A stretch of 64,000 bases of DNA from a virus. The notes below the pieces were generated by a model. It saw only the letters and a list, made by a program, of their open reading frames with translations, was not told the origin of the DNA and searched no databases. Below, piece by piece: positions 1 to 17,840 of the stretch (position 1 is the first letter of the stretch; every line of letters starts with the position of its first letter). The translations under genes were made by a program, and so were the position numbers. The DNA lies in IMG/VR virus record IMGVR_UViG_3300027749_000066, positions 1 to 64,000 of that record. One strand, written 5' to 3'.

Positions 1-7
1 TATTATT

Positions 8-3000
8 TTGAGAGAAAATAATAATATCATCCTAAGAGAAGATAATAATATTACACTAGTTCAGTCAGCAGATAATACTATTATTGCTGTAGGCTCTAGC
101 AACTCTGGTCCTGTTGGCCCTATCGGTCCACAAGGTCCACAAGGTCCACAAGGCCCACAGGGAGCATATGTTGTATTTCAAAATGAAACTCCGTCTTCTA
201 CAAATCTTCTTTGGGTTGATACTGATGATCCGGGTGATGCGGTCATCCCATCAGGAGGTTTGAAGGGGCAAGTTTTATCAAAAAATTCAAGTAGTGACTA
301 TGATACGGGCTGGGCAGATCGGCAGTATAAGAACGCTGTTGATATCCGAGAGTTTCAGGACAATATTGCTGTTGGCGTATTTGATCCGACATATGCAACT
401 GTTACGGATATCACTCCAGCCATAATAAGGGCTTTTGGGGTGTTGAGTGACGATGGTTATTCTTATATTTCTGGTCAAACACCTGAGCTAACCAAAGGAG
501 ATACTCTTGTACTACCCAAAGGGTTTTACAAGTGTCAACCTTTTTCTTATCATTTCCCGATGCACCTTACGGGTTCTGGTATGTCTCTTACTCGCCTTGC
601 CCCTGTAAACAATGTTCATGTAAACGGATCTACTGCTGAACAGTTCATAACTTTGAAAAGGGGACCAAGTAATACACCCTACCTACAAAATGGTCATATT
701 GATGGGTCATTAATAGAGAACCTCTTCATAGATGGGAGAGGTCGTACCATTGACATCGGGGGACTGGAGTACCAGTTTCAACATCACTATTTGTTGCGTA
801 ATGTTCGTATAGCCCACTTCGCACGGACGGGTTTGACAGTTAATCAATCTCCGCGAGAATCGGTATTTGATTATGTGTATTTGCTTGGTAATGGCGATGG
901 GTCATCATACCCACAGTTTGATCTATCAGAATATACTACTTCTGATGATACAAATAATATGCATTTTCATAATTTTTTCTCTATTTTCCCATTTGGTGAC
1001 AGTATGTGGTTTAGACCAGATCCTGCAAATTCAACTAGAGCGAGAAATGTATATTTTTCCCAATCTATGATTCACAATTGTACTGATGGAATTGGACAAT
1101 CATTTATTTTTCAAGATGGTTATGGCTATACGGCTACACCCGCTATAAGAGGTGGTACTAATCTTACTATTGCAGGTAATGGCTCAAGTTTTTTTAATGG
1201 TGCTAGATTTATCAACAGTTCTTATGGTAAGCCAGTTATTAGAGAGTGTGATTATTCTATAGCTAGCGGTTATTCTAAAAAGACTGGTCCATCTGCGAGT
1301 GGTACGATGGGTGTGACTTTTTATGGCGGTGTTTCTGCAACAACAGCCCTTAACACCGCAATCACTAGTGCAACTCCCGGTGTTCCCACCGCATTGAGTT
1401 TGGCAATTACTAACACTCGCTCTACTACAAGCACTACGCTTACTGCCGCAATCACTAGTACAAGCAGCACTTTAATTACAGTCAATAGCGCTAGCACTGT
1501 AGAAGTCAATTCAGTTCTCCTAATTGATTCTGAAGTAATGGTAGTCACCGCCGTATCAGGCACTACTCTAACTGTGACCCGAGGGGCAGCAGGCACAACT
1601 GCCGCAACTCACCTGACGGGAGCTTTAGTTCGAACCAATATCGTCAAAGTAAGTTCTTCTACTGGTATAGCAGCCGGTTCAGTTGTACTGATTGATTCCG
1701 AACTGGTGACAGTTACTTCAACATCGGGCAGCGGCAACCTTCTTGTCACCAGAGGAACAGGTGGTACGACTGCTGCAACTCATCTTCTTAACGCCACAGC
1801 TAGTAGCACTATCAGTGTGAATTCTTCTACTGGCATGACTGCTGGTTCAGTTCTCCTGATTGACTCTGAGAAGCTAGTTGTTGTGTCAGTTTCTGGTAAC
1901 TATCTTGTAGTCACCAGAGGCGCATCAAACACTACTAGCGCTTCTCATTCCGCAGGAGCGACAGTACAAGTTCTTAACTCTAATTCTTATTTTGAAGAAC
2001 GAGTATCACGTACTAACTCTATGCCTACAGGGACAAGAGTAAAAGTTAGTGATTCACTTCCTTCAGAGATATCAGCAAATCAATACTATTATCTGATAGA
2101 CAGTACTCCTCTGAAGTTAGCAAGTACTGCTTCAAACGCTATGGCTGATATTCCAATCGCAATAACTTATACAAGCGCATCTAATCTTAATGCAACTATA
2201 ACTTCTTATGTAAACACCGGGGCAACTAACTACCTGCACTACTCTCAAGGTAACGTAGGAAATACTAACTATATAACTGGTTCTGTTACAACCTCTAGTG
2301 GTTCTCCTACATTGACAGTCGTTCCGGGTTCTGTAAATTCTGATGATGGAAGTTTTCTTTCGAGTAATGCACACTTCCTCACCACTGGAGCTTTGATACG
2401 TTTTACGGGAACTCTGCCTACAGGGATTTCTGCTGATGTTGATTATTATGCTGTAGTTCCCACAACCCGCAGTTTCCAGACTTATTCTACGCCCCTCAAT
2501 CCTGCTAGCGGCTATGCAACTACTTCTTCTAGCACTCTGACTATTGTCAATAGTGGGGACATTACTCTAACTATCGTCCCTGTTGGAACTTTTGGACCAG
2601 ACCAGATGGTATCCGTTGTATGGAGTGTTGACAAGTGGATGATGATTAGGGTCAAGAGCTATAATTCTGCTACTGGTCAAGTGGTCGGAAGTGTTTTTGC
2701 CAGCAAGGGGTCGGGAACATACGGGTCACCGGAGGCAACATGGAATGTAGATCGAAGTACAGCAAACACAGGCCAGTGGGGAGAAATGGCTGTTAGCACC
2801 ACAACTTTCAAGATAGCGAGGTCATTCTTGGATGCAGAGTATTCTGCAACGAATCCCTCTGACACATCCCGCCTTGTCTCAGTCTCTTCGGTGGGATCAT
2901 GTACGTTCACTACACAGCGCTATCAAGTATCACTTGAAAAGGGCAATCTTCTTTTACAAGACATTGATTTTGATAGTATTACTGATAGTAGCCTTATTCG

Positions 3001-3550
3001 GGCAGCTTCTGACGTAAGAGTAGAAATAGGGAAAGGAATGGATTTTTCCCAAAATAAAGTCTTGCCCACCAACTTCAATACTGTTATGAATCATATACCC
3101 GTGTATCTTTTGTCGGACATCACTAACGACACTACGGCGTTTGCTAACGGAATAAGTGTGATTTACCCCAATTTGCTTAGAAATGCACAATATACTTTTG
3201 AGGGTACACTGTATGTAACTAGTGATCCTACTGAAGATATCAAATTGGCAGTTGGCTATAATAATTTATATGGCTTGAAGTGGTATGCCAGTGGGTTAGC
3301 TTCAGATGGAACTACATTTACTATTAGCGACGCAATAGTTGGAACTGATGGTTCAGCAACAACTACTTCAGTTATTATGGGTACAAAATCCACTACTGTA
3401 CCCAACGTGATAACAGTAAAAGGTACGTTCACTACTTCAACAGGTGTTCCTAGCTTTTTTTTGAAATTTGCACAAAATACAACGGCAGTAAGTGGTGTAG
3501 CAGCAACATTAAAATCAGGCTCTAACCTTATGTTTACCCAGATTGGTTGA
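8..3550 (+). CDS. Large virion fibre/tailspike-like protein (collagen N-terminus, pectate-lyase-like beta-helix, inserted Ser/Thr-rich beta modules); start uncertain at window edge
   Basis: GPQGPQ collagen repeat; tailspike-like segment DITPAIIRAF...TLVLPKGFY...LTGSG; three IDSE-x-V...VTRG...T-x-A-x-H repeats. Confidence 0.7.
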   Translation: MRENNNIILREDNNITLVQSADNTIIAVGSSNSGPVGPIGPQGPQGPQGPQGAYVVFQNETPSSTNLLWVDTDDPGDAVIPSGGLKGQVLSKNSSSDYDTGWADRQYKNAVDIREFQDNIAVGVFDPTYATVTDITPAIIRAFGVLSDDGYSYISGQTPELTKGDTLVLPKGFYKCQPFSYHFPMHLTGSGMSLTRLAPVNNVHVNGSTAEQFITLKRGPSNTPYLQNGHIDGSLIENLFIDGRGRTIDIGGLEYQFQHHYLLRNVRIAHFARTGLTVNQSPRESVFDYVYLLGNGDGSSYPQFDLSEYTTSDDTNNMHFHNFFSIFPFGDSMWFRPDPANSTRARNVYFSQSMIHNCTDGIGQSFIFQDGYGYTATPAIRGGTNLTIAGNGSSFFNGARFINSSYGKPVIRECDYSIASGYSKKTGPSASGTMGVTFYGGVSATTALNTAITSATPGVPTALSLAITNTRSTTSTTLTAAITSTSSTLITVNSASTVEVNSVLLIDSEVMVVTAVSGTTLTVTRGAAGTTAATHLTGALVRTNIVKVSSSTGIAAGSVVLIDSELVTVTSTSGSGNLLVTRGTGGTTAATHLLNATASSTISVNSSTGMTAGSVLLIDSEKLVVVSVSGNYLVVTRGASNTTSASHSAGATVQVLNSNSYFEERVSRTNSMPTGTRVKVSDSLPSEISANQYYYLIDSTPLKLASTASNAMADIPIAITYTSASNLNATITSYVNTGATNYLHYSQGNVGNTNYITGSVTTSSGSPTLTVVPGSVNSDDGSFLSSNAHFLTTGALIRFTGTLPTGISADVDYYAVVPTTRSFQTYSTPLNPASGYATTSSSTLTIVNSGDITLTIVPVGTFGPDQMVSVVWSVDKWMMIRVKSYNSATGQVVGSVFASKGSGTYGSPEATWNVDRSTANTGQWGEMAVSTTTFKIARSFLDAEYSATNPSDTSRLVSVSSVGSCTFTTQRYQVSLEKGNLLLQDIDFDSITDSSLIRAASDVRVEIGKGMDFSQNKVLPTNFNTVMNHIPVYLLSDITNDTTAFANGISVIYPNLLRNAQYTFEGTLYVTSDPTEDIKLAVGYNNLYGLKWYASGLASDGTTFTISDAIVGTDGSATTTSVIMGTKSTTVPNVITVKGTFTTSTGVPSFFLKFAQNTTAVSGVAATLKSGSNLMFTQIG
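125..160 (+). repeat. Collagen-coding tandem repeat (GGTCCACAA)n
   Basis: ggtccacaa units encoding GPQ. Confidence 0.8.
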
Positions 3551-6857: not shown

Positions 6858-7291
6858 CTGTTCTTAAGCTTTGGAATGGCTCTGCTTGGGTTGAGACTGC
6901 TGTTGGTGCTCAAGGTCCAACAGGCGATGCAGGAACTAATGGCGCTAATGGCGATTGGTCAACTGCACAGATAGTACGCAGTGATAGTTCAACTTCGGCA
7001 ACTACTTTAGTTAGCACAGATGCCGGAAAGATGGTTAGATTTACTGGCGGTTCTAATATTAATGTGACGTTGAAATCTGGTGCCAGTGGTATATCGCTTA
7101 CTCAGGGACAACGTGTTGATGTTGTCCAAACTGGAGCGGGAAAGATTACTTTTTTAGGTGGCGATCATACTTTGCTTTTTACGCCAACTGCTCAGTTGCG
7201 TACAGCAAATTCTTCTGCATCAATTATGTGTCTTGATACTTCTGTTAGCCCTAATCTTTATCTTCTAACTGGCGATGTGGCGGCTTCGTAA
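6854..7291 (+). CDS. Short collagen-containing virion fibre protein, paralog of 3581..4021
   Basis: GTNGANGDWSTAQ versus GTNGTNGDWTTAQ; QTGAGKIT versus QTGSGQVT; ends LTGDV. Confidence 0.65.
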   Translation: MTVLKLWNGSAWVETAVGAQGPTGDAGTNGANGDWSTAQIVRSDSSTSATTLVSTDAGKMVRFTGGSNINVTLKSGASGISLTQGQRVDVVQTGAGKITFLGGDHTLLFTPTAQLRTANSSASIMCLDTSVSPNLYLLTGDVAAS

Positions 7292-8271
7292 TGCCTTCTA
7301 CGTTTGGTATAGTTTCTTCAGCGTCAACATATGTTCATCCTTTATTTGCTGTTTCCCCTGATACTTCTGGATTTTTTGGTGGGCCTGCAACTGTTACTAG
7401 TTATCAGGCAAATGGGTGGCAATATGCTTTAGTGACTGGAATTAGTGGCTATACTGCTAATATTATTCCAACTATTGGTGGAGAAGTCCAGATTATTTTG
7501 ATTGGTGGTGGCGGTGGTGGTGGCGCTTCTAACCTAGGAAATGTTTCCGGTGGCGGTGGCGGTGCAGGAGGCTATCTAGGCCCATCGAAAGTATTAATAG
7601 ATAGATCACTTCAAATTAACATAGGATCGGCAGGTGCTGGGGCAGCAAATGCGACTACTGCAGCTACTGCTGGTGGTGAAACAAATTTGTATGACTTTTC
7701 TGTGCTTGGTACTTATTTGGGATTGCGAGCCTATGGGGGTGGGCAGGGCGGTACAACCAACTTACTGCTATCTGGGTCCGGTGCTTCAGGTGGTGGTGGC
7801 GGAACTAATAATAATACAAGTTATGCTGGAGGGTCTGCGACTCCAAGCGGTCAGGGGAATGCTGGTGGTGCTGCATTTGGTAGCACAACCCTTTTAAATC
7901 GTGCTGGCGGCGGAGGCGGTGGCGCAACTACTTCTGGTAGTGCTGGAGCATCGCAAACAGGCGGTGCTGGTGGTACCGGGTTTAGTATTCCATCAGGATG
8001 GGATTCTCCTTCCTCTCCTCCTAGTGGATGGCCTACAAGCGGGAAAGCGTTTTCTGCTGGCGGTGGCGGTGGTGGAAATATTACGCGTGGAGCAGGCGGG
8101 TCATCAAGTAGTGGCGGCAATGGCGGTATTGGATCAAGTAGTACAGCTGCAGTAGTTGCATCTACTATTGGCTCCGGTGGTGGCGGTGCAGGTGTAGGGG
8201 CAACAACAAATATAACGCGAGCAGGCCAGAATGGTTTTTCTGGAATGGTTTGGATTAGATGGAGATTATAA
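7291..8271 (+). CDS. Glycine-rich putative adhesin/fibre-tip protein
   Basis: Many GGGGGG/GGGGAGG runs, IGGGGGGG opening and G-x-S-G-x-V-x-I-R-W ending typical of phage glycine-rich domains. Confidence 0.65.
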   Translation: MPSTFGIVSSASTYVHPLFAVSPDTSGFFGGPATVTSYQANGWQYALVTGISGYTANIIPTIGGEVQIILIGGGGGGGASNLGNVSGGGGGAGGYLGPSKVLIDRSLQINIGSAGAGAANATTAATAGGETNLYDFSVLGTYLGLRAYGGGQGGTTNLLLSGSGASGGGGGTNNNTSYAGGSATPSGQGNAGGAAFGSTTLLNRAGGGGGGATTSGSAGASQTGGAGGTGFSIPSGWDSPSSPPSGWPTSGKAFSAGGGGGGNITRGAGGSSSSGGNGGIGSSSTAAVVASTIGSGGGGAGVGATTNITRAGQNGFSGMVWIRWRL

Positions 8272-8310: not shown

Positions 8311-8332
8311 TAATAGGATCGGAGGATTGTTT

Positions 8333-11300
8333 ATGCAATCTGGACTTAATTTCACTTTCCCGTTTCAAAAGATTAATAAGGAACAGAGAATTGTTACTGG
8401 TATTGCTACTGCTGACAATCCGGATTTAGTTGATGATGTTGTTAATTTTGATGCTTCTGTCAAGGCTTTTTCTAATTGGATTGGCAATATTAGAGAAATG
8501 CATTCTCCTATTGCTGTAGGAAAACTTGTTGATTGGAAAACTGTTCCTGTCTCTTATAATGGTCAGATGTATCAAGGTATTGAAGTTTCTGTTTATATTT
8601 CCAAAGGTGCCGAAAATACTTGGCAAAAAATTCTTGATGGAACTTTGAAAGGTTTTTCCATTGGCGGAAATATTGGTAAAACTGAAAATGTTTTTATGGA
8701 ACGTCATGGAAGAAAAGTTCGTGAGATTCAAGATTATATGCTTGGTGAACTTAGTGTTGTAGATAATCCTTGTAATCCTGCTGGTATGTTTGCAATGATC
8801 AAAAGTGTTAATGGTAAGCTTGAGTATGTTGCTGGTTCAATGCAAGATGTTTTTTATTGTGAAGACGATGGCTATACCTCAGTAGGTGGAGATAGTTCTT
8901 GCCCATCTTGTTCTGAGGAAATGATGATTATTGGTAAATCTGAAGATTATGATGAAATTTTGATAAATAAATTTATTCAAACTATTCATGATTCTTTTGA
9001 AAAAGCTATTTCTGATATCAATACTGTTCCAACTGATGCTATGGCTGCTGAGGCAAAGCGCGGGCTTGATTGGCGTAAAGAGTTTAATCGTGGTGGACTT
9101 GCTGTAGGCGTTGCTAGAGCAAGAGATATTATGAATAAAGATACTTTGAGTATCTCAACTGTTCGTAGAATGCATAGTTTTTTTGCTCGTCATGAAGTTG
9201 ATAAAAAAGGTAAAGGTTTCTCTCCGGGCGAGGATGGCTATCCATCAGCAGGAAGAATCGCTTGGGCTTTATGGGGAGGCGATCCCGGTAAATCTTGGGC
9301 TGATGCTATTGTAAATCGTATTAATAATATGAATAAGAATATTTTAATAAATAAATCAACGATTCAAAATGGTGATTTTGTTTCTTGGAGTTCTTCTGGT
9401 GGAGACGCTAGAGGCAAAGTGACCAAAATTGAAACAAATGGAAGTATCAATATTCCTGATTCTAGTTTTAATATTACTGGAACTGAAGAAGATCCCGCCC
9501 TTCTTATTCAAATTTGGCATAAAAATGAACAAGGTTGGTCTGAAACTAATACTTATGTAGGACATAAGATGTCTACTGTTTCTAAAATAAATGATTTAAA
9601 TAAGAAAGATATGGATATGAATAAATCACAAGATATGTGTAAAATGTGTGAAGATAATGGTTATCTTCAGAAAGATATGACTTGTCCATATTGTGATGGC
9701 ATGGGTTGTCTTGATGATAATAGCGATTGTTCTTCTTGTGACTCTACTGGCACACTTATGGAGGGCGATAACTGTCCCATGTGTAAAATGGTAGATACTG
9801 CGTCTATGGCTAGTGGCGGTATTCTTCAGCCTGTTCAGGGTCTTCCTCCGCAGAGAAAAAAGAAGATGCGAAAGGACGCTCAGATGAAAACTGAGGGTGG
9901 CGATCAGTATCCCGCTGCTGCTTTTGCTTATGTTCCTGATGCCAATATGCCTTCAACTTGGAAACTTCGTCTTTGGGAGTCGCCTTCTGCTAAGGAAACT
10001 GTTGCTCAGGTTTCAAGAGCAGCAACTGCTCTTACTTCTGCTGGTTTCCGTGGCAATAAGGTTCAGATTCCTGCTGCTGATCTTGCTGGTGTTAAGGAAA
10101 AAATTCGTGCTGCTTGGCATCGTGTTAATGGGCCAGATCGTGCTCTTCCGGCTGTTTTGAAGGGTTATGAATCTGGTGATATTTCTAAGATGATGCCTAT
10201 GCCTAGTTATAGTGGATCTCAAGTGATTGCTGCACTTCAAAAAGCTGTTGGAGATGTTGCAGTTATGTATACTCATGCTCATGGCTATCATTGGAATGTT
10301 CGTGGTAGTGATTTTGCTCAGTATCACGCTTTATTTGAGGCTATTTATACTGATGTATATGAGAGCATCGATCCTCTTGCAGAAAATATTTTAAAGATGG
10401 GTGGAACTGCTCCTAGAGGTCTTAGTGAGTTTTTATCTTTTGCTACAATTGATGATGATCCTCTTATGGTTGCTGATCCAGAAATGCTTGCTGCCGATCT
10501 TGCTGAAGATAATGATGCAGTTATTGATAGTTTAAATAATGTTTTTGTAATCGCCAATGCTGCCAATCAGCAGGGTGTTTGTAATTTTGTTGCTGAAAGA
10601 ATTGATCAGCATCAAAAGTGGGCGTGGCAGTTGAAGGTATCTGATGATATTTACGAGATGCCCGAATCAATGGAGGGAATGATGGTTTCTAAAAATAATA
10701 ATGTAGAGTTTGTAAAAAATGCAGGTGATTTGCAAACAAACGGAAATTATGATAATGTTTCATATATGTCTGAAGATAATCTTACTGAAAAAGAAAAGAA
10801 TAGTATTCTCTCCAAACTTGGAGAGTTTCTTTTTGGCAAGTCGCAAGTTGTTGATGTTAATAATATCAATCATCACCTCCGCATTGTTTCTGATGGAAAC
10901 ATGACGCAGGCCCCTCATGTTGTTGTTAATGTTGGTGGCGCTGATTTTGGTGATGTTATTAGAGATCCTGCAGTTACTTCATCTGGGTTCACTAGTTCAA
11001 ATGTTGATCATCAGAATATGATTAATGCTACTCCATCTACTGTAGAGCAGGGTGGAGATTCTAATGCTCATGAAGGCGCAGGGTCGGGCGAAGATGCCCT
11101 AGAAGAAGTTTCTGCTGGTAGTGGAAGCGATATGGCAGTAAATCAAGGATATCCCACAATGATGGGTAAATCTATTAATGAAGGAGATAATGAAATGGAT
11201 TTTGAGAAGGTACTTGAAGGTCTGAGTTCACTTCTTGATGAGAAGCTTGAGAAGGTCAAGGCTGATATCTCAGCAGAGGTTGACGGGAAGATCGATGCCA

Positions 11301-11518
11301 TCGAAAAATCCGTTTCCGATGTTCAGGATACTGCCAATGTTCTTTCAGGTGGACTTGAGAAAGTTGCAAACTCAGGCGCTGAGCGTAAGTCAACAGATTT
11401 TGACTATCAGGTCAGCAAAGAAGATGAGGAGTTCGCTAAGAGCTTCCAGACCGAAAGTTTTTGGGGCGGAGTTTTTGTCCCTACCGAGATCTGCAAGGTC
11501 TTGGGTTACGATTCATGA
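8333..11518 (+). CDS. Prohead maturation protease-scaffold polyprotein with inserted Tudor-like, Zn-finger and Dps domains
   Basis: N-terminal IREMH...GFSIGG...ELSVVDNPCNP protease motifs; lies directly upstream of the capsid gene; acidic coiled-coil C-terminus; ATG 8333 is 7 nt after GGAGG. Confidence 0.85.
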   Translation: MQSGLNFTFPFQKINKEQRIVTGIATADNPDLVDDVVNFDASVKAFSNWIGNIREMHSPIAVGKLVDWKTVPVSYNGQMYQGIEVSVYISKGAENTWQKILDGTLKGFSIGGNIGKTENVFMERHGRKVREIQDYMLGELSVVDNPCNPAGMFAMIKSVNGKLEYVAGSMQDVFYCEDDGYTSVGGDSSCPSCSEEMMIIGKSEDYDEILINKFIQTIHDSFEKAISDINTVPTDAMAAEAKRGLDWRKEFNRGGLAVGVARARDIMNKDTLSISTVRRMHSFFARHEVDKKGKGFSPGEDGYPSAGRIAWALWGGDPGKSWADAIVNRINNMNKNILINKSTIQNGDFVSWSSSGGDARGKVTKIETNGSINIPDSSFNITGTEEDPALLIQIWHKNEQGWSETNTYVGHKMSTVSKINDLNKKDMDMNKSQDMCKMCEDNGYLQKDMTCPYCDGMGCLDDNSDCSSCDSTGTLMEGDNCPMCKMVDTASMASGGILQPVQGLPPQRKKKMRKDAQMKTEGGDQYPAAAFAYVPDANMPSTWKLRLWESPSAKETVAQVSRAATALTSAGFRGNKVQIPAADLAGVKEKIRAAWHRVNGPDRALPAVLKGYESGDISKMMPMPSYSGSQVIAALQKAVGDVAVMYTHAHGYHWNVRGSDFAQYHALFEAIYTDVYESIDPLAENILKMGGTAPRGLSEFLSFATIDDDPLMVADPEMLAADLAEDNDAVIDSLNNVFVIANAANQQGVCNFVAERIDQHQKWAWQLKVSDDIYEMPESMEGMMVSKNNNVEFVKNAGDLQTNGNYDNVSYMSEDNLTEKEKNSILSKLGEFLFGKSQVVDVNNINHHLRIVSDGNMTQAPHVVVNVGGADFGDVIRDPAVTSSGFTSSNVDHQNMINATPSTVEQGGDSNAHEGAGSGEDALEEVSAGSGSDMAVNQGYPTMMGKSINEGDNEMDFEKVLEGLSSLLDEKLEKVKADISAEVDGKIDAIEKSVSDVQDTANVLSGGLEKVANSGAERKSTDFDYQVSKEDEEFAKSFQTESFWGGVFVPTEICKVLGYDS
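10217..10642 (+). other. Dps/mini-ferritin domain embedded in the protease polyprotein
   Basis: HGYHWNVRGSDFAQYHALFEAIY...IDPLAENILKMG and QKWAWQL match the Dps signature with His/His/Asp/Glu ferroxidase ligands. Confidence 0.85.
10730..10758 (+). promoter_or_regulatory. Putative internal promoter within the protease gene
   Basis: TTGCAA-17 nt-TAATGT with TGn extension; in-frame ATG at 10766. Confidence 0.45.
11195..11518 (+). CDS. Putative nested in-frame scaffold protein (107 aa)
   Basis: AAGGAG at 11181-11186, 8 nt before an in-frame ATG; coiled-coil MDFEKVLEGLSSLLDEKLEK. Confidence 0.55.
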   Translation: MDFEKVLEGLSSLLDEKLEKVKADISAEVDGKIDAIEKSVSDVQDTANVLSGGLEKVANSGAERKSTDFDYQVSKEDEEFAKSFQTESFWGGVFVPTEICKVLGYDS

Positions 11519-11534: not shown

Positions 11535-12626
11535 ATGAGTAACACTAGAGAATTATTAGAAAAAGCAGTAATTAACACTTCTACTTCCGCAGGTGCTGGT
11601 AACATCGGTGCAGCGGGTGGCGGTATTCTTAAGCCTCGTCAGGCTAATCGTTTTATCGATTATCTGTTTGATCAGTCAGTTCTTATGAAGACTGCTCGTA
11701 TCGTTCGCATGAGCGCTCCGAGTGTTGAGATCGATAAGGTTGACATTGGTAACAAGATTATGCGTAAGGCTACTGAAGGTACGGATGACGGCTCTAATGC
11801 TAACCCGACTTTCACCAAGGTCGCAATGACTACTGTCAAGCTTCGTCTTGATTGGGAAATCACGGTTGAAGGCCTTGAGGACAACATTGAGGGTGATTCT
11901 CTTGAGGATCATATCGCCTCTCTGATGGCTCGTCAGACTGCTAATGATCTTGAGGATCTTTACATCAATGGTAGCACTGCTCTTTCGAGCGATGCTCTTT
12001 ACAAGGCTCTTGATGGTTTCAAGGTTCTTGCCCGTGCAAGTGGTGTTGTTGTTGATGCTGCTGGTGGTAACCTCACCCGCTCTATCTTCGACAAGGCTCT
12101 TCGTGCTCTTCCGAATAAGTACCTTCAGCGTCGTTCGCAGCTTGCTTTCTCTACTTCTAGTTCGCTGGTTCAGGATTACATCTGGAGTCTTTCTCTTGAC
12201 GCTACCGCTAACTCTACTTACAATCCCGGTGGTGGCATTGGTACGACTGGCTCTGGTTTGGGTGGTTCCTTCGGTTCTGCTATGGGCGATGCTATCGTCA
12301 ATCAGGGCATGGGTGGCGCTACTGGTGGCGGCAATGGTCCCAACTATATCAACGGCATTCGTCCGTTCGGTATTCCGCTGCTTGAGGTTCCGCTTTACCC
12401 TGAGACTGAGACTGGCACTTATACTGCTGCCTCTGGCAATCATGGTATTGTTGAACTTACGTTCCCGCAGAACCGTATCATCGGTATTCAGCGTGACATC
12501 ACGGTTTACCGTGAGTTCAAGCCGAAGAAGGACACGATTGAGTACACTCAGTTCATCCGTGTTGCCAACCAGATTGAAAATGCCGCTGCTTACGTTCACG
12601 TAAGGAACGTAAAAGTTCGTTCATGA
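11535..12626 (+). CDS. Major capsid protein (HK97 fold)
   Basis: GGGILKPRQANRFID, ARQTANDLEDLYING motifs; GAGGTG RBS; strongly biased codon use; follows protease/scaffold. Confidence 0.92.
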   Translation: MSNTRELLEKAVINTSTSAGAGNIGAAGGGILKPRQANRFIDYLFDQSVLMKTARIVRMSAPSVEIDKVDIGNKIMRKATEGTDDGSNANPTFTKVAMTTVKLRLDWEITVEGLEDNIEGDSLEDHIASLMARQTANDLEDLYINGSTALSSDALYKALDGFKVLARASGVVVDAAGGNLTRSIFDKALRALPNKYLQRRSQLAFSTSSSLVQDYIWSLSLDATANSTYNPGGGIGTTGSGLGGSFGSAMGDAIVNQGMGGATGGGNGPNYINGIRPFGIPLLEVPLYPETETGTYTAASGNHGIVELTFPQNRIIGIQRDITVYREFKPKKDTIEYTQFIRVANQIENAAAYVHVRNVKVRS

Positions 12627-12656: not shown

Positions 12657-12680
12657 AAGCCGGGGCAAATGCCCCGGCTT
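12657..12680 (+). terminator. Hairpin/terminator after capsid gene
   Basis: AAGCCGGGGC-AAAT-GCCCCGGCTT then T-rich tract. Confidence 0.75.
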
Positions 12681-12703
12681 TGTTAATTTACAGGAGAATT
12701 AAG

Positions 12704-13360
12704 ATGCAAAAAATAACATCGGAAGAGACTGATTTGATAATAAGTCTTTATGATGATGGTGTCTACCCCGTAGATATTGCTAAAAAAATTGGTAGAGCAC
12801 CTGCCAGTATTTATCGCACACTTCGCAAAAGCGGGAGAACTGAGACTTTACCTGAACGAAAAGCAAGACATGGGCTTTCAGATGAACAGGTTATCGAAGT
12901 TATTGAAATGAGAAAAAATAATATTTCATATAATAAAATTGCTTCAAAATTTGGTTTAAATGGGCATACTATCGCCAAAATTTGTGAAAAAGCAGATATA
13001 GAATTTACTGATTTACGTTATGGTGAAAATAATGTAAATTGGGTTGGTGGACGTAGAGTAAATCAAAATGGATATGTTGAGATAACTATTCCTATTGATC
13101 ATCCATTTAGAGATGCAATGCGCGCTAATAGGGGAACTTGTATGGAACATCGTTTTATAATGGCAGAACATATCAATCGCCCCCTTGAGGCTCATGAAGA
13201 TGTGCATCATATAAATGGAAACCGCTCAGATAATAGAATTGAGAATCTAGAGCTTTGGAGTACAAGACAACCTAGAGGACAGCGTATTGAAGATAAGGTT
13301 GAATTTGCCTTAGAGATACTCTCCCTCTACTACCCCGAAGCACTCAAAGTTCGCTCGTAG
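12704..13360 (+). CDS. HNH homing endonuclease with N-terminal HTH motifs
   Basis: [14 protein letters not shown]...[19 protein letters not shown]; AGGAG RBS before ATG 12704. Confidence 0.88.
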
Positions 13361-13420: not shown

Positions 13421-14713
13421 ATGACTAGAGTGAGAAAATTGACTGAACAATCAAAATTCACGTTTATTGATCTGTTTGCTGGCATTGGTGGTTTTCATGC
13501 AGCACTGAGCGAGATGGGTGGTGAGTGTGTTTATGCTGTTGAGATTGATCCAAAAGCAGCAGCAATTTATGAATTAAATTGGGGTATCAATCCTCTTGGT
13601 GATATTACTGAAGTTGCCAATGATGATAGGGTTGATATTCCTGATCATGATGTTCTTGTTGCAGGGTTTCCTTGTCAGCCTTTCTCTAAGTCCGGTTTTC
13701 AACGGGGTATGAGTGATACAAGAGGAACTTTGTATTGGAATATCCTTAAGATTATTGAAGTTAAAAAACCAGCTTTTGTTTTACTTGAGAATGTTCGTAA
13801 TCTCGCTGGCCCTAAACATACTCATGAGTGGAATATTATTATATCTACTTTAAGAGATCAGGGCTATAAGGTTTCTTCTGATCCTGTCATTGTTTCTCCA
13901 CATAAGATTCCCCCTCATCTTGGGGGTACTCCTCAGAGTCGTGATCGTGTATTCATTGCAGCAGTTCGTGCTGATGGTATTTCTGATCTTTCTGATATAT
14001 CATTTTTGAATAATTATAATTTTGAGGATTGGAGTCCTCAAAACTGGAATCTTTGTTCAGATCTTCCCTTGCTTTCTAAAGAAGATGTAGAAGATTTTAT
14101 TTTAAATGATAATGAAATCTTTTGGCTTGAAGCTTGGAACGAACTTATTGTTGGTATTAAAGATAGTCTTGATGGTAATAATCTTCCAAGTTTTCCTATT
14201 TGGGGTGATAGTTGGATTATGCCTGATGATCTTGATATACCTGAAAATACTCCTAAATGGAAAGCAAGTTTTTTAATTAAAAATGCTGAATTTTATGCAC
14301 AACATCGTTGGATTATTGATGAATGGATTAGTCGTTGGGACTTTTATTCTGATAAATTCCCTGCTTCTCGTCGCAAGTTAGAGTGGCAAGCGCAGGATGC
14401 AGATTCTATTTTTGATACTTGCATTCAATTTCGTCCCTCTGGGATTAGGGTGAAAAAGCAAACATACCTTCCGGCTCTTGTCGCTATTACTCAGACTTCT
14501 ATTATTGGCAGCCAGATGCGTAGACTTTCTGTTCGTGAGGCAGCAAGACTTCAGGGTTTTCCTGAGAGTTTTGATTTTGGTGATCAACTTCATTCTGCTT
14601 CTTATAAGCAACTTGGTAACAGTGTCTGTGTTGGAGCGGTATCTTTTGTATTCAAAAAAGCGGTAGATCATTATTCAGATATTCTCAAAAACACTTGTCC
14701 GAGTATGATATAA
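13421..14713 (+). CDS. DNA (cytosine-5)-methyltransferase, M.AluI-like, orphan
   Basis: Motifs FIDLFAGIGG, GFPCQPFS, ENV, QSRDRVF, YKQLGNSV; variable region FPASRRKLEWQAQDA...FRPSGIR...YLPALVAITQTSI recalled from M.AluI. Confidence 0.93.
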   Translation: MTRVRKLTEQSKFTFIDLFAGIGGFHAALSEMGGECVYAVEIDPKAAAIYELNWGINPLGDITEVANDDRVDIPDHDVLVAGFPCQPFSKSGFQRGMSDTRGTLYWNILKIIEVKKPAFVLLENVRNLAGPKHTHEWNIIISTLRDQGYKVSSDPVIVSPHKIPPHLGGTPQSRDRVFIAAVRADGISDLSDISFLNNYNFEDWSPQNWNLCSDLPLLSKEDVEDFILNDNEIFWLEAWNELIVGIKDSLDGNNLPSFPIWGDSWIMPDDLDIPENTPKWKASFLIKNAEFYAQHRWIIDEWISRWDFYSDKFPASRRKLEWQAQDADSIFDTCIQFRPSGIRVKKQTYLPALVAITQTSIIGSQMRRLSVREAARLQGFPESFDFGDQLHSASYKQLGNSVCVGAVSFVFKKAVDHYSDILKNTCPSMI

Positions 14714-15976: not shown

Positions 15977-16343
15977 TCGTAGTTTTATAAGATTTACTAA
16001 TAGAGTTGATATTTATTCTCAAACATATCTTACCAATGATATGGGTCAGAAAGTTTCTTCTTGGAATTTAACTAAAGAAGCTATGAAATGTCTTTATGTT
16101 TCTGCTAGAAGTTCTACTGGTATTCGTATTACTCCTAATCAAATTGAAGCAAATTATTTTTTGTTTTATTTTAATTATGATGCTCCTATTGATTATGGCC
16201 TTAGACTCAAAAATGTTACAAATTCATTAAGAAGTGAAGTAATAGAAGATAGTTGGTTACAAATTATTCAAATTGATAAAGAATTATCTTATTCTGGTAA
16301 AGTGCAGTATCTTAGTATTCGAGCAAAGAGTGTAATAGAATGA
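15969..16343 (+). CDS. Head-to-tail stopper/closure protein
   Basis: Position, size, NDMGQKVSSW motif; start moved to ATG 15969 overlapping the upstream gene end. Confidence 0.6.
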   Translation: MLNRSFIRFTNRVDIYSQTYLTNDMGQKVSSWNLTKEAMKCLYVSARSSTGIRITPNQIEANYFLFYFNYDAPIDYGLRLKNVTNSLRSEVIEDSWLQIIQIDKELSYSGKVQYLSIRAKSVIE

Positions 16344-16768
16344 CTTTTCGAGTTGAATCTTTGGTGGTTAATCCAGATGGTTTTGATGATCTTACTAAAA
16401 ATATTCAATTAAAAAAAGCTTATTATAAAAATCAATCTACTCAATTCGCCTATGTCCTAGAGTCCGAATTAAAAACAGGTTTAAGTAATGTTTTGGGTTC
16501 AAGAGCAAAGCATTTCAATGTTATTGTTGAAAGAACAGCAGATGGTGCTGCAGTAAATTTAAGATCTATTGATTATATTGCTATATGGCTTTATCATGGT
16601 ACTAGAGCACATACTATTGACTCATCTAACCCTATGCCCATTTACCCTAATGAAGGTATATTTAGGTATTCAGTTAACCATCCGGGTCAGAAACCTATGA
16701 AGCCTGAAATTGATGAAGCTATTAAAGAGGCTAGATTGAAAGCAAGAAGAATGGTAAAAACATTATGA
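16340..16768 (+). CDS. Neck/tail completion protein (HK97 gp10-like)
   Basis: YHGTRAHTI...VNHPGQKP motif; position. Confidence 0.55.
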   Translation: MTFRVESLVVNPDGFDDLTKNIQLKKAYYKNQSTQFAYVLESELKTGLSNVLGSRAKHFNVIVERTADGAAVNLRSIDYIAIWLYHGTRAHTIDSSNPMPIYPNEGIFRYSVNHPGQKPMKPEIDEAIKEARLKARRMVKTL

Positions 16769-17178
16769 TTTCTTTAGATATTAATCCGGCTTTAAAAACT
16801 TACCTTGCAACTCAAGGGTTTGGGGATGTAGAAATTTATCCTTTAAATGCTTATAGAGACTATAAGGCTCCTTTTATTACTTGGACAGAATATCCTGCAA
16901 CTAAAAGTAGTGAAGAATATTGGTTTAGAGATTCTATTTTAACTTATTATATTTATGACAATGATATTTCTAATGCTAAAAATCTTTCTTATAAAATAGA
17001 AAATTTTCTTAATATTGGAGATTTAACTCAAAATATTAAAAATTTGATTGCTAATCCAATATCTGGATATCGTCTTTGTTGGTCTAGATTGAATACTGGA
17101 ACTATGTCTGCAGCTATTGAGAGAGATGGTTTGACTTGTATTAGCAGGGTTTTTGATGTAGGATATCTCCCTTTGTAG
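16765..17178 (+). CDS. Tail terminator protein
   Basis: Position immediately before major tail gene; APFITW motif. Confidence 0.55.
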   Translation: MISLDINPALKTYLATQGFGDVEIYPLNAYRDYKAPFITWTEYPATKSSEEYWFRDSILTYYIYDNDISNAKNLSYKIENFLNIGDLTQNIKNLIANPISGYRLCWSRLNTGTMSAAIERDGLTCISRVFDVGYLPL

Positions 17179-17297
17179 TTGCTTTATAAATGGGAATATT
17201 ATAATCTGTATGTAGAGCAAGAGTGTTTATTTAGCTCTAAAAATTTATAATAAGATCTGTTTTCGAATTTTTGTAATTATTAAGGAGGTGCCATAAA

Positions 17298-17840
17298 ATG
17301 GCAGTTACATTTTCAAATATTATCACTGGTGAAGGCAAAATTTTCTTAGGCGCTACGGCTGCTACTGCCACCGATCTTGGTGGCACAATGGATGGTGTTG
17401 AAATCGCTTGGGAACCTTCGATGGTTGAGATTGAGATCGATCAGTTTGGTGACGCTGCTCGCGTTATTACTGAGAAGATCAAGGTTTCTCTCAAGACGAA
17501 ACTCGCAGAGGCTACGCTTGAGAATCTTTCGTACTCTTGGAACTATATTGCTGCTAATCAGCTTACCACTAATGCTGGTGTTAGCAAGGTTCTGAATATT
17601 GGTATTCAGTCTGTTTATCCTGCTGAGAACTACATCAAAGTCATTGGTACTGCTCCGAACTCTTCGGCAACCAAGACTTATACTCGTACTTATGAGTGCT
17701 ATCGTGCAGTTCAGTTCTCTGCTAGCACACATACCCTGAAGCGTGCCGATGCTATCTCATTCCCGGTTGAATTCCGCATTCTTCCGAATGCAAACTACAC
17801 TGGCAAAGAGTATGGCACTATTACTGACTCACTGACCTGA
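17298..17840 (+). CDS. Major tail (tube) protein
   Basis: DLGGTMDGVEI...TKLAEATLENL...FPVEFRILP; AAGGAGGT RBS; high-expression codon bias. Confidence 0.85.
   Translation: MAVTFSNIITGEGKIFLGATAATATDLGGTMDGVEIAWEPSMVEIEIDQFGDAARVITEKIKVSLKTKLAEATLENLSYSWNYIAANQLTTNAGVSKVLNIGIQSVYPAENYIKVIGTAPNSSATKTYTRTYECYRAVQFSASTHTLKRADAISFPVEFRILPNANYTGKEYGTITDSLT

Follow-up and report, generated by a model that had tools for sequence, protein, structure and literature searches.

A phage prohead protease-scaffold polyprotein with a complete Dps domain: a candidate gene for loading cargo into capsids

The virus record IMGVR_UViG_3300027749_000066 is a single 97,486-bp contig from freshwater metagenomes, and the analysis described here concerns its first 64 kb (positions 1 to 64,000; the window), in which the + strand holds nearly all of the genes. 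One gene in this window encodes a polyprotein in which a prohead protease, a series of passenger modules, a Dps (mini-ferritin) domain, and a scaffold tail follow one another. An initial reading based on the letters and their open reading frames (ORFs), referred to below as the sequence-only reading, had described one frame of about 1060 amino acids (aa) joining these parts. The frame was confirmed and is open throughout, and the motif coordinates given in that reading are all correct. The ORF list and a scan for Shine-Dalgarno (SD) sequences place the open frame at 8327..11518 (+), with the actual start at the ATG at 8333, 9 nt downstream of a GGAGG, which gives a protein of 1061 aa; the same start Met is used by all aligned relatives of the polyprotein. 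Residue numbers in the polyprotein (K159, H655, and so forth) are counted from the opening of the frame at 8327 and not from the ATG, and P-numbers (e.g., P0010) are labels of collected relatives.

The polyprotein gene lies between the portal gene and that of the major capsid protein (MCP), the placement that marks an HK97-type prohead protease. The portal gene begins at the end of the contig (Pfam Phage_portal 2e-24; phrog_12), several fibre-like genes separate the portal region from the polyprotein ORF, and the MCP gene opens 16 nt past the polyprotein stop codon. The head operon around the polyprotein lacks a separate scaffold gene (genes of the window and the contig-end portal region). Genes for the portal, head-tail adaptor, tail proteins, and replication are all found in this genome. 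The coordinates of the features are collected in Table 1.

A gene of this composition could be an artefact, either a chimeric assembly or a gene in decay; however, this explanation has a negligible probability and is already refuted as far as contigs permit. The 1061 codons are uninterrupted, and independent ENA, JGI, and Logan assemblies (contigs of ~97 kb) yield full-length relatives of the polyprotein with 65-77% identity. Furthermore, the gene is tiled at >=99% identity by contigs of two additional freshwater runs, and one of these contigs crosses the junction between module E and Dps. The mis-assembled fusion that the sequence-only reading had named as a way to be wrong is thus not what lies here.

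Table 1. Features of the polyprotein gene and the adjoining capsid gene, with the conservation of individual Lys sites (a slash marks a predicted cut; pLDDT, predicted local distance difference test)
Feature	Position (nt)	Strand	Evidence or conservation
Prohead protease - passenger modules - Dps - scaffold polyprotein gene, 1061 aa	8333..11518, stop codon included	+	ORF list, GGAGG and ATG, start shared by relatives
HK97-type prohead serine protease domain, ends at conserved M-I-K159/S	8333..8803	+	phrog_9427, tblastn, HK97 gp4 alignment, H59/S111 invariant
Cys3 zinc-ribbon-like knuckle and helix, ends at F-E-K226/A	8804..9004	+	invariant Cys; model with beta hairpins and helix
Module B, helical, virus-only, ends at M-N-K337	9005..9337	+	phrog_2859; pLDDT 80-89
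Module C, Tudor/SH3-like beta barrel (Hva1_TUDOR-like), between I-N-K343/S and L-N-K426/K	9356..9604	+	Pfam PF11160, VIA-align
Module D, four CxxC pairs (DnaJ-like zinc finger), optional cassette	9605..9814	+	sequence; low pLDDT
Linker with GGILQPVQG, then RKKKMRK516/D	9815..9874	+	motif in relatives
Module E, alpha/beta, virus-only, ends at V-L-K612/G	9875..10162	+	phrog_19463 E 1.6e-26
Predicted freed Dps unit, aa 622-789, ~19 kDa, between I-S-K621/M and V-S-K789/N	10190..10693	+	Pfam, PDB, Foldseek
Variable acidic spacer, mostly disordered, one short conserved helix at aa 821-836	10694..11194	+	pLDDT <50; weak conservation
Internal SD AGGAG for nested scaffold gene	11182..11186	+	conserved SD
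Nested in-frame scaffold ORF, M957-S1063, 107 aa	11195..11518	+	conserved SD and start; I-E-K994/S, x-K1038/S; C-terminal FWGG-FVP-LGY-S
MCP, aa 1-10 probable propeptide ending L8-x-K10	11535..12626	+	phrog_1623 E 5e-80; weak PF05065 from residue 28
K159			Lys in 137/175 relatives; M/I/L at -2
K337			Lys in 80/101 relatives
K343			Lys in 56/58 relatives
K426			Lys in 59/69 relatives; L at -2 always
K612			Lys in 89/90 relatives; I/V at -2
K994			Lys in 125/132 relatives; Ser next in 108
K1038			Lys in 110/129 relatives; Ser next in 107

The polyprotein contains a true, complete Dps domain, as had been read from the sequence. The core of this domain (aa 634-770; nt 10226-10636) scores 62 bits against Pfam PF00210 Ferritin (E 7.5e-17; cut-off 24.5), and comparison with PDB sequences returns a Dps match with an E of 1.5e-16. 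The structural model of the domain (pLDDT 86-94) superposes on many Dps crystal structures in Foldseek with template modelling (TM) scores of 0.86-0.93 and a root-mean-square deviation of 1.2-1.5 A over ~144 residues. The ferroxidase set is intact (H655, H667, D682, and E686, plus the neighbouring W656), and the ligands are invariant across 139 fused Dps domains, with the exception of E686, which is retained in 138 of them. This pattern supports strong purifying selection on the catalytic site. In known Dps proteins the ferroxidase ligands are supplied by two subunits; taken together with the ligand conservation, this suggests that the Dps described here at least dimerises, and by analogy the freed domain probably oligomerises into the usual 12-mer.

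The N-terminal part of the polyprotein is assigned to the prohead proteases on several grounds. The region spanning aa 7-211 matches phrog_9427 (head maturation protease) with an E of 8e-63, and the domain shares ~45% identity with Streptomyces phage proteins annotated as capsid maturation proteases (tblastn). The Pfam scores (PF04586/PF14550) lie under threshold, at 16.9 bits for S78 (cut-off 21) and 17 bits for S78_2 (cut-off 24). The Ser motif GFSIGG (S111) aligns with GMSVGF of HK97 gp4, and the end of the domain, AMIKSVNG, aligns with AAMKSVDG of HK97. H59 and S111, the catalytic His and Ser expected for this protease family, are invariant in 47 relatives.

Five smaller units lie between the protease and Dps. 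The first had been described as a small zinc ribbon. It contains only three invariant Cys residues (C178, C192, and C195), and zinc binding by this knuckle is plausible; the unit is doubled in relatives P0067-P0073. Module B (aa 229-338, phrog_2859) is helical in the model, and its relatives are exclusively viral and occur stand-alone as well as fused. Module C (aa 349-419) matches Pfam PF11160 Hva1_TUDOR with an E of 1e-4, just below the cut-off here and above it in relatives, and its model aligns with Tudor domains, Hva1 (4p5n) among them, with VIA-align Z scores of 6.5-6.9. The CxxC pairs of module D fall within aa 438-504, where the model is poorly confident, and the module is missing from relatives P0010 and P0048. 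Module E spans aa 517-612, and the high-scoring segment pairs of dozens of relatives stop precisely at residue 612. The ESM Atlas matches of modules B and E are unnamed viral clusters only, and Foldseek with the B-E sub-model gave no match in the PDB at E<=0.001 (the VIA-align list was taken up by the Tudor barrel). No recognised conflict, effector, or anti-defence domain was found in this polyprotein at the Pfam and PHROG thresholds used.

The sequence-only reading had also noted that module borders repeatedly carry hydrophobic-x-Lys motifs. This motif surrounds 37 of the 69 Lys residues in the polyprotein (54%) vs 27.8% in the other proteins of the phage (p 9e-6), and the form with a small residue next accounts for 17% vs 5.2% (p 2e-4). 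When the module borders are defined independently, as the edges of low-confidence segments in the AlphaFold model, 9 of 12 linker edges have a hydrophobic-x-Lys at most 2 residues away vs 1.96 expected, a result that was reached in 0 of 100,000 shuffles (p<1e-5). The short linkers 159-170, 338-343, and 613-622 start or finish exactly on such a Lys. The motif at the borders thus exceeds chance. Some of the individual motifs named in that reading are not conserved: MGKS occurs in 2/7 relatives, and FVKN occurs in P0001 only.

The capsid protein, which had been noted to open with a similar Lys site, extends this pattern. The N-terminus of the MCP reads M-S-x-x-E-L-L-E-K/A, in which L8 and K10 do not vary across 25 aligned relatives; an L-x-K motif recurs near the N-terminus in most of 70 MCP relatives. 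After K10 there is a hypervariable stretch, followed by an N-arm motif, GG(L/I)LxPxQ. In HK97 gp5, K103 has F at -2 and S104 next (T-F-N-K103/S104), with GSLIQPMQ later in the chain; S104 is the known mature N-terminus. The predicted cleavage specificity therefore matches that of the type member of the family, and these data support the presence of conserved HK97-type hydrophobic-x-Lys sites at the module borders. The linker between modules D and E contains a motif, GGILQPVQG (GGGGIKxPxQG in relatives), that is found in 77 of 359 collected proteins, in the linker every time. This motif (9815-9841) resembles the MCP N-arm GGGILKPRQ (11607-11642) and the HK97 sequence GSLIQPMQ, and may mimic the capsid N-arm, e.g., as a docking or protease-recognition element.

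The C-terminal part of the polyprotein resembles a scaffold. A spacer of ~170 residues separates Dps from the tail, which consists of a long coiled-coil helix (aa 959-1015) followed by a conserved C-terminal peptide, and the tail is the region most broadly shared among the architectures of the relatives. Only three in-frame starts with an SD of at least 5 nt exist in the whole gene: the true start, M786, and M957. The last of these, which the sequence-only reading had missed, is the first residue of the conserved tail. All 26 IMG/VR loci that align at this position have the nested start (ATG, or GTG in one), with an SD of 5-6 nt located 10-13 nt upstream. The SD takes the forms AGGAG, GGAGG, AGGAGG, and GGAGGT, while the residues encoded over it vary (EGE, KEE, GGE, MEE, QEE, VEE, LEE); as background, a comparable SD precedes only 4% of the ATGs located inside these long ORFs. 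It is strongly indicated that a separate 107-aa bulk scaffold protein is made from 11195, as in lambda C/Nu3. The nested start and the shared C-terminus point to a loading route in which the polyprotein likely enters on the C-terminus of the scaffold, such that the nested start likely supplies the loading mechanism for the passengers. A second in-frame ATG at 10682 (M786, the Met of MVSKN, which is invariant) follows a GGAGG located 7 nt upstream, with one further locus alike, and could give rise to a second nested product of 278 aa.

Comparison of homologous genes, which the sequence-only reading had recommended, revealed exchange of modules. Based on BLAST maps of 120 relatives, modules are deleted in some relatives (Tudor in P0003; D in P0010 and P0048; E in P0009; Dps in a large 865-aa group), while the cassettes DUF5824, DUF6582, DUF6321, and DUF5872 are inserted in others. 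The order is altered to protease-Dps-E in P0075 and P0084, and C-E-B precedes an XkdF-type protease in P0106 and P0120. More distant arrangements include B-HAD phosphatase-Dps-S78 (P0114) and ADP-ribosyltransferase-B-Dps-Tudor (P0102), and the fusion partners of modules B, C, and E in BFVD include prohead proteases, XkdF, portal proteins, HAD, ParB, and Dps. These comparisons support the exchange of modules at hydrophobic-x-Lys junctions among the relatives.

Several observations on individual relatives are of interest in their own right. In the cultured Roseobacter phage CRP-811 (PV211010.1; 3977-6424 of the piece examined), one 816-aa protein is annotated as "major capsid protein" and reads module B-Tudor-S78 protease-Phage_capsid, making this phage a tractable system for asking whether these modules are head cargo. 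Relative P0127 has two Dps domains behind a single S78 protease, and P0271 (2073 aa) matches the first Dps helix at 33 separate places. Members of the P0135-P0142 group are 1600-1900 aa in length, are encoded on 100-150-kb contigs, and have one Dps near the C-terminal third and no other Pfam match.

The distribution of Dps bears on its role. Among 70 IMG/VR loci in which a homologous MCP follows the protease-scaffold ORF (374-867 aa), Dps is present in five, and the protease-scaffold genes that accompany the seven closest MCPs (66-73% identical) are without Dps. This distribution indicates that Dps is optional cargo and no part of assembly, for which it appears to be dispensable. It also weighs on the proposal that the Dps 12-mer functions only as an assembly hub, clustering protease-scaffold chains and nucleating the core before being degraded or expelled. 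Scaffolds do act as oligomers, and known Dps cages expose both chain ends on the outside, so flanking domains could radiate outward. However, a purely structural role needs no invariant ferroxidase ligands, and with Dps absent from the operons of the closest MCP relatives and from most of the 70 operons, we regard this proposal as highly improbable.

Fusion of this Dps clade to head proteins is frequent. A length-filtered search returned 162 fused matches, and most of the best 150 cluster representatives (50% identity) with this Dps exceed 250 aa. In a census of 267 Dps-bearing proteins, the protease follows Dps in 45 and precedes it in 51, of which 30 have the scaffold tail described here. 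S78 proteases are fused to this clade at either end, and other partners include XkdF protease, MuF (P0165), ADP-ribosyltransferase (P0102), Zeta-toxin kinase (P0202), and HAD phosphatase. A tree of the Dps domain implies at least 25 changes of the protease-linked state, a rough count obtained with a short domain and inflated by truncated contigs. Searches among cultured phages were negative: megablast against cultured phage records gave no near relative of this phage, and tblastn against cultured phages gave none with a Dps of this kind fused to a protease.

The company that the Dps clade keeps with injected-effector domains (the ADP-ribosyltransferase, Zeta-toxin, MuF, and HAD phosphatase partners named above, and a kinase) is what would be expected if the loaded passengers were meant to enter the host together with the DNA, where they could protect the incoming genome or dampen an oxidative or nuclease response. 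Such a role would parallel the T4 internal proteins and MuF-fused effectors, and it fits the logic of polyvalent proteins (PMC5512222). On the other hand, a folded oligomer exceeds the tail channel, such that Dps would need to travel unfolded or as a monomer, and this particular protein has no recognised anti-defence domain. Ejection as an effector is consequently considered unlikely. The recurrence of the fusions is difficult to reconcile with a third view, in which Dps is a cytoplasmic auxiliary enzyme that lowers Fenton damage late in infection, with the fusion merely tying its synthesis to the late genes and any encapsidation being incidental. Free Dps genes are found among the replication genes of other phages, and the Dps genes of gut phages have been interpreted as oxidative-stress helpers (PMC8008677), both of which are in keeping with a cytoplasmic enzyme. 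In contrast, head-protein fusions are found repeatedly, in either orientation and with more than one protease family (the rough count of changes given above), and procapsids should take up a polyprotein that ends in a scaffold tail. We thus judge a purely cytoplasmic role improbable, and more so than ejection.

It is considered probable, by a modest amount, that the gene instead encodes a phage protease-scaffold protein in cargo-rack form, in which passengers are loaded into the head, freed by the protease, and, in the case of Dps, retained or delivered. The steps may be envisaged as follows. First, as read from the gene, one chain joins an HK97-type protease, five passenger modules with an intact Dps, and a scaffold tail, with the MCP gene directly downstream. 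Next, the internal ribosome-binding site and the ATG at 11195 would also yield the last 107 aa alone, as bulk scaffold, a step that is strongly indicated. A minority of polyprotein would then co-assemble with the scaffold and MCP in the procapsid core via the shared coiled coil and C-terminal peptide, placing the protease and passengers within the shell. Judging from the motif statistics and the HK97 precedent, the protease would cut after the Lys of the hydrophobic-x-Lys sites found along the linker edges, within the scaffold tail, and at K10 of the MCP, thereby releasing folded modules and dismantling the scaffold. Finally, the freed Dps (~aa 622-789) would oligomerise, stay in the head, and consume Fe(II) and peroxide beside the packed DNA; alternatively, it could accompany the DNA into the host cell. 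A folded Dps oligomer would be too large for capsid pores, which makes its retention in the head likely. In this role, in fresh water that is oxic and sunlit, Dps would guard the genome against Fe(II) and peroxide. The sequence-only reading had likewise suggested that the scaffold pulls the passengers in and the protease frees them; the covalent fusion within a head operon and the conserved sites bear out its premises, while we infer the cutting, the retention, and the function. The gene and its relatives make it most likely that the passengers enter every new head and are released inside it, and their loading into the procapsid is an almost immediate consequence of the architecture.

A number of points weigh against this model. 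The hydrophobic-x-Lys motif is loose, occurring about once per 29 aa, and is favoured by amphipathic helices; some sites lie within helices (K226 and K994, plus K639 and K690 inside Dps itself). The wider set of Dps-protease fusions has no sharply placed Lys site before Dps, with small peaks of 10% at -34 and 7% at -30, and by this comparison the Lys site ahead of Dps is a trait of this lineage only. E. coli Dps binds DNA via a Lys-rich N-terminal tail, which is present in some Dps proteins only, and the predicted N-terminus of the freed Dps, MMPMPSYSGSQ, contains no Lys. A poly-Lys stretch is found directly upstream of Dps in some relatives. Lastly, a 12-mer is unable to pass the tail channel, which limits the delivery part of the cargo-rack model.

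Other genes of the window have features of their own. The portal ORF (16187-17485 of the contig-end piece) runs off the end of the contig, and the first ORF of the window (2-3550) is open at its 5' side. The portal frame appears to continue into this first open frame, and the contig therefore probably represents a complete genome with circular permutation. In a circular genome, the portal would bear a fused C-terminal extension of ~1180 aa with fibre-like repeats, which could be a further carrier of passenger domains. Upstream of the polyprotein, a gene for a Gly-rich-domain protein (7291-8271; Pfam Gly_rich_2) has, around 8075-8170, ~95 nt replaced by a different 34-nt stretch in contigs of two other runs, so strains differ in this repeat-rich gene. 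An HNH endonuclease gene (12680-13360; phrog_20891) is flanked by the MCP gene and by a gene for a DNA methyltransferase (13421-14713).

Should Dps truly be carried in heads, it would add a new class to the head-internal proteins, namely an enzyme providing chemical protection of the packed genome. The cargo-rack model would also provide a simple natural rule for loading HK97-type capsids, namely the insertion of a protein between the protease and the scaffold tail with hydrophobic-x-Lys flanks, and the virus-only modules (B, E, DUF6321, DUF5872, DUF5824, DUF6582) would form a pool of probable head cargo. The link between phage capsids and encapsulin-ferritin systems would become testable. A bolder proposal, which is offered tentatively and is somewhat doubtful at present, is that some tailed phages are natural "ferritin-in-capsid" particles, with Dps cages loaded by the protease-scaffold and kept as a built-in antioxidant; the gene would then be a plug-in rack that swaps cargo at protease-site junctions and a plausible evolutionary bridge to iron-storing encapsulins. 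The new elements of this analysis are the statistics of sites at linker edges, the nested start at 11195, and module shuffling with an optional Dps, while head-internal cargo and polyvalent proteins are already known kinds. No description of Dps or ferritin fused to a prohead protease or scaffold was found in the literature, with subscription journals outside coverage.

Nested protease/scaffold genes are known from lambda C/Nu3, Mu I/Z, and herpesvirus UL26/UL26.5, and in lambda C/Nu3-type systems the shared C-terminus brings the protease into the procapsid. The gene described here is similar to these systems in having an N-terminal protease, a C-terminal scaffold, and a shorter in-frame start, with the products being predicted in this case. 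In contrast to the lambda C/Nu3 type, ~800 residues of folded passengers, including an enzyme, lie between the protease and the scaffold. The protease/scaffold isoforms of ostreid herpesvirus 1 (OsHV-1) also follow the nested design (PMC11565193). The resemblance to HK97 gp4/gp5 lies in the shared protease family and in the capsid site, which is L-E-K10/A followed by GGGILKPRQ here vs F-N-K103/S104 followed by GSLIQPMQ in HK97. HK97 differs in that gp4 is 225 aa without passengers and in its reliance on the capsid delta domain instead of a separate scaffold.

In T4, the internal proteins and Alt enter the prohead core and undergo trimming by the prohead protease (summarised in PMC5512222), and their short N-terminal targeting peptide is cut at L/I-x-E. 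The proposal made here shares with T4 the transfer of non-structural passengers into the prohead; unlike T4, targeting would rely on a covalent link to the scaffold, with predicted cuts after Lys. Polyvalent proteins (Iyer et al. 2017, PMC5512222) offer another parallel, with shuffled domains in one chain, ties to packaging parts, and a built-in peptidase. Relatives of the polyprotein share the polyvalent-type domains ADP-ribosyltransferase, Zeta-toxin, MuF, and HAD, while this polyprotein itself is without an effector domain. The description of polyvalent proteins mentions no ferritin, Dps, or Tudor domain and places an assemblin-like peptidase C-terminally (PMC5512222), whereas here the protease is N-terminal and the scaffold tail ends the chain.

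Free Dps genes are already known in phages (PMC6669764, PMC8008677); those of Lactobacillus phages, "Gratiaviridae", and phage G belong to the same enzyme family, and the ferritin-like protein of phage G was detected in virion proteomics (PMC12484599). Unlike the domain described here, these are encoded by genes of their own, several located in replication modules, and have no known loading device. Encapsulin nanocompartments are described (PMC11202242) as holding ferritin-like cargo in a phage-capsid-type shell, which is dedicated to cargo and lacks genome-packaging machinery; a C-terminal docking element brings the cargo in. The proposed similarity to encapsulins is one of loading logic only and consists of a phage-type shell together with an iron enzyme of the ferritin superfamily; on the polyprotein, the conserved C-terminal peptide is, by its sequence, a candidate for such a shell-docking element. 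The differences are equally clear, as the genome described here is that of a working tailed phage, with portal and tail genes and 97 kb of DNA, whose candidate cargo is a Dps rather than an encapsulated ferritin and whose loading would proceed through a scaffold-protease fusion followed by proteolysis.

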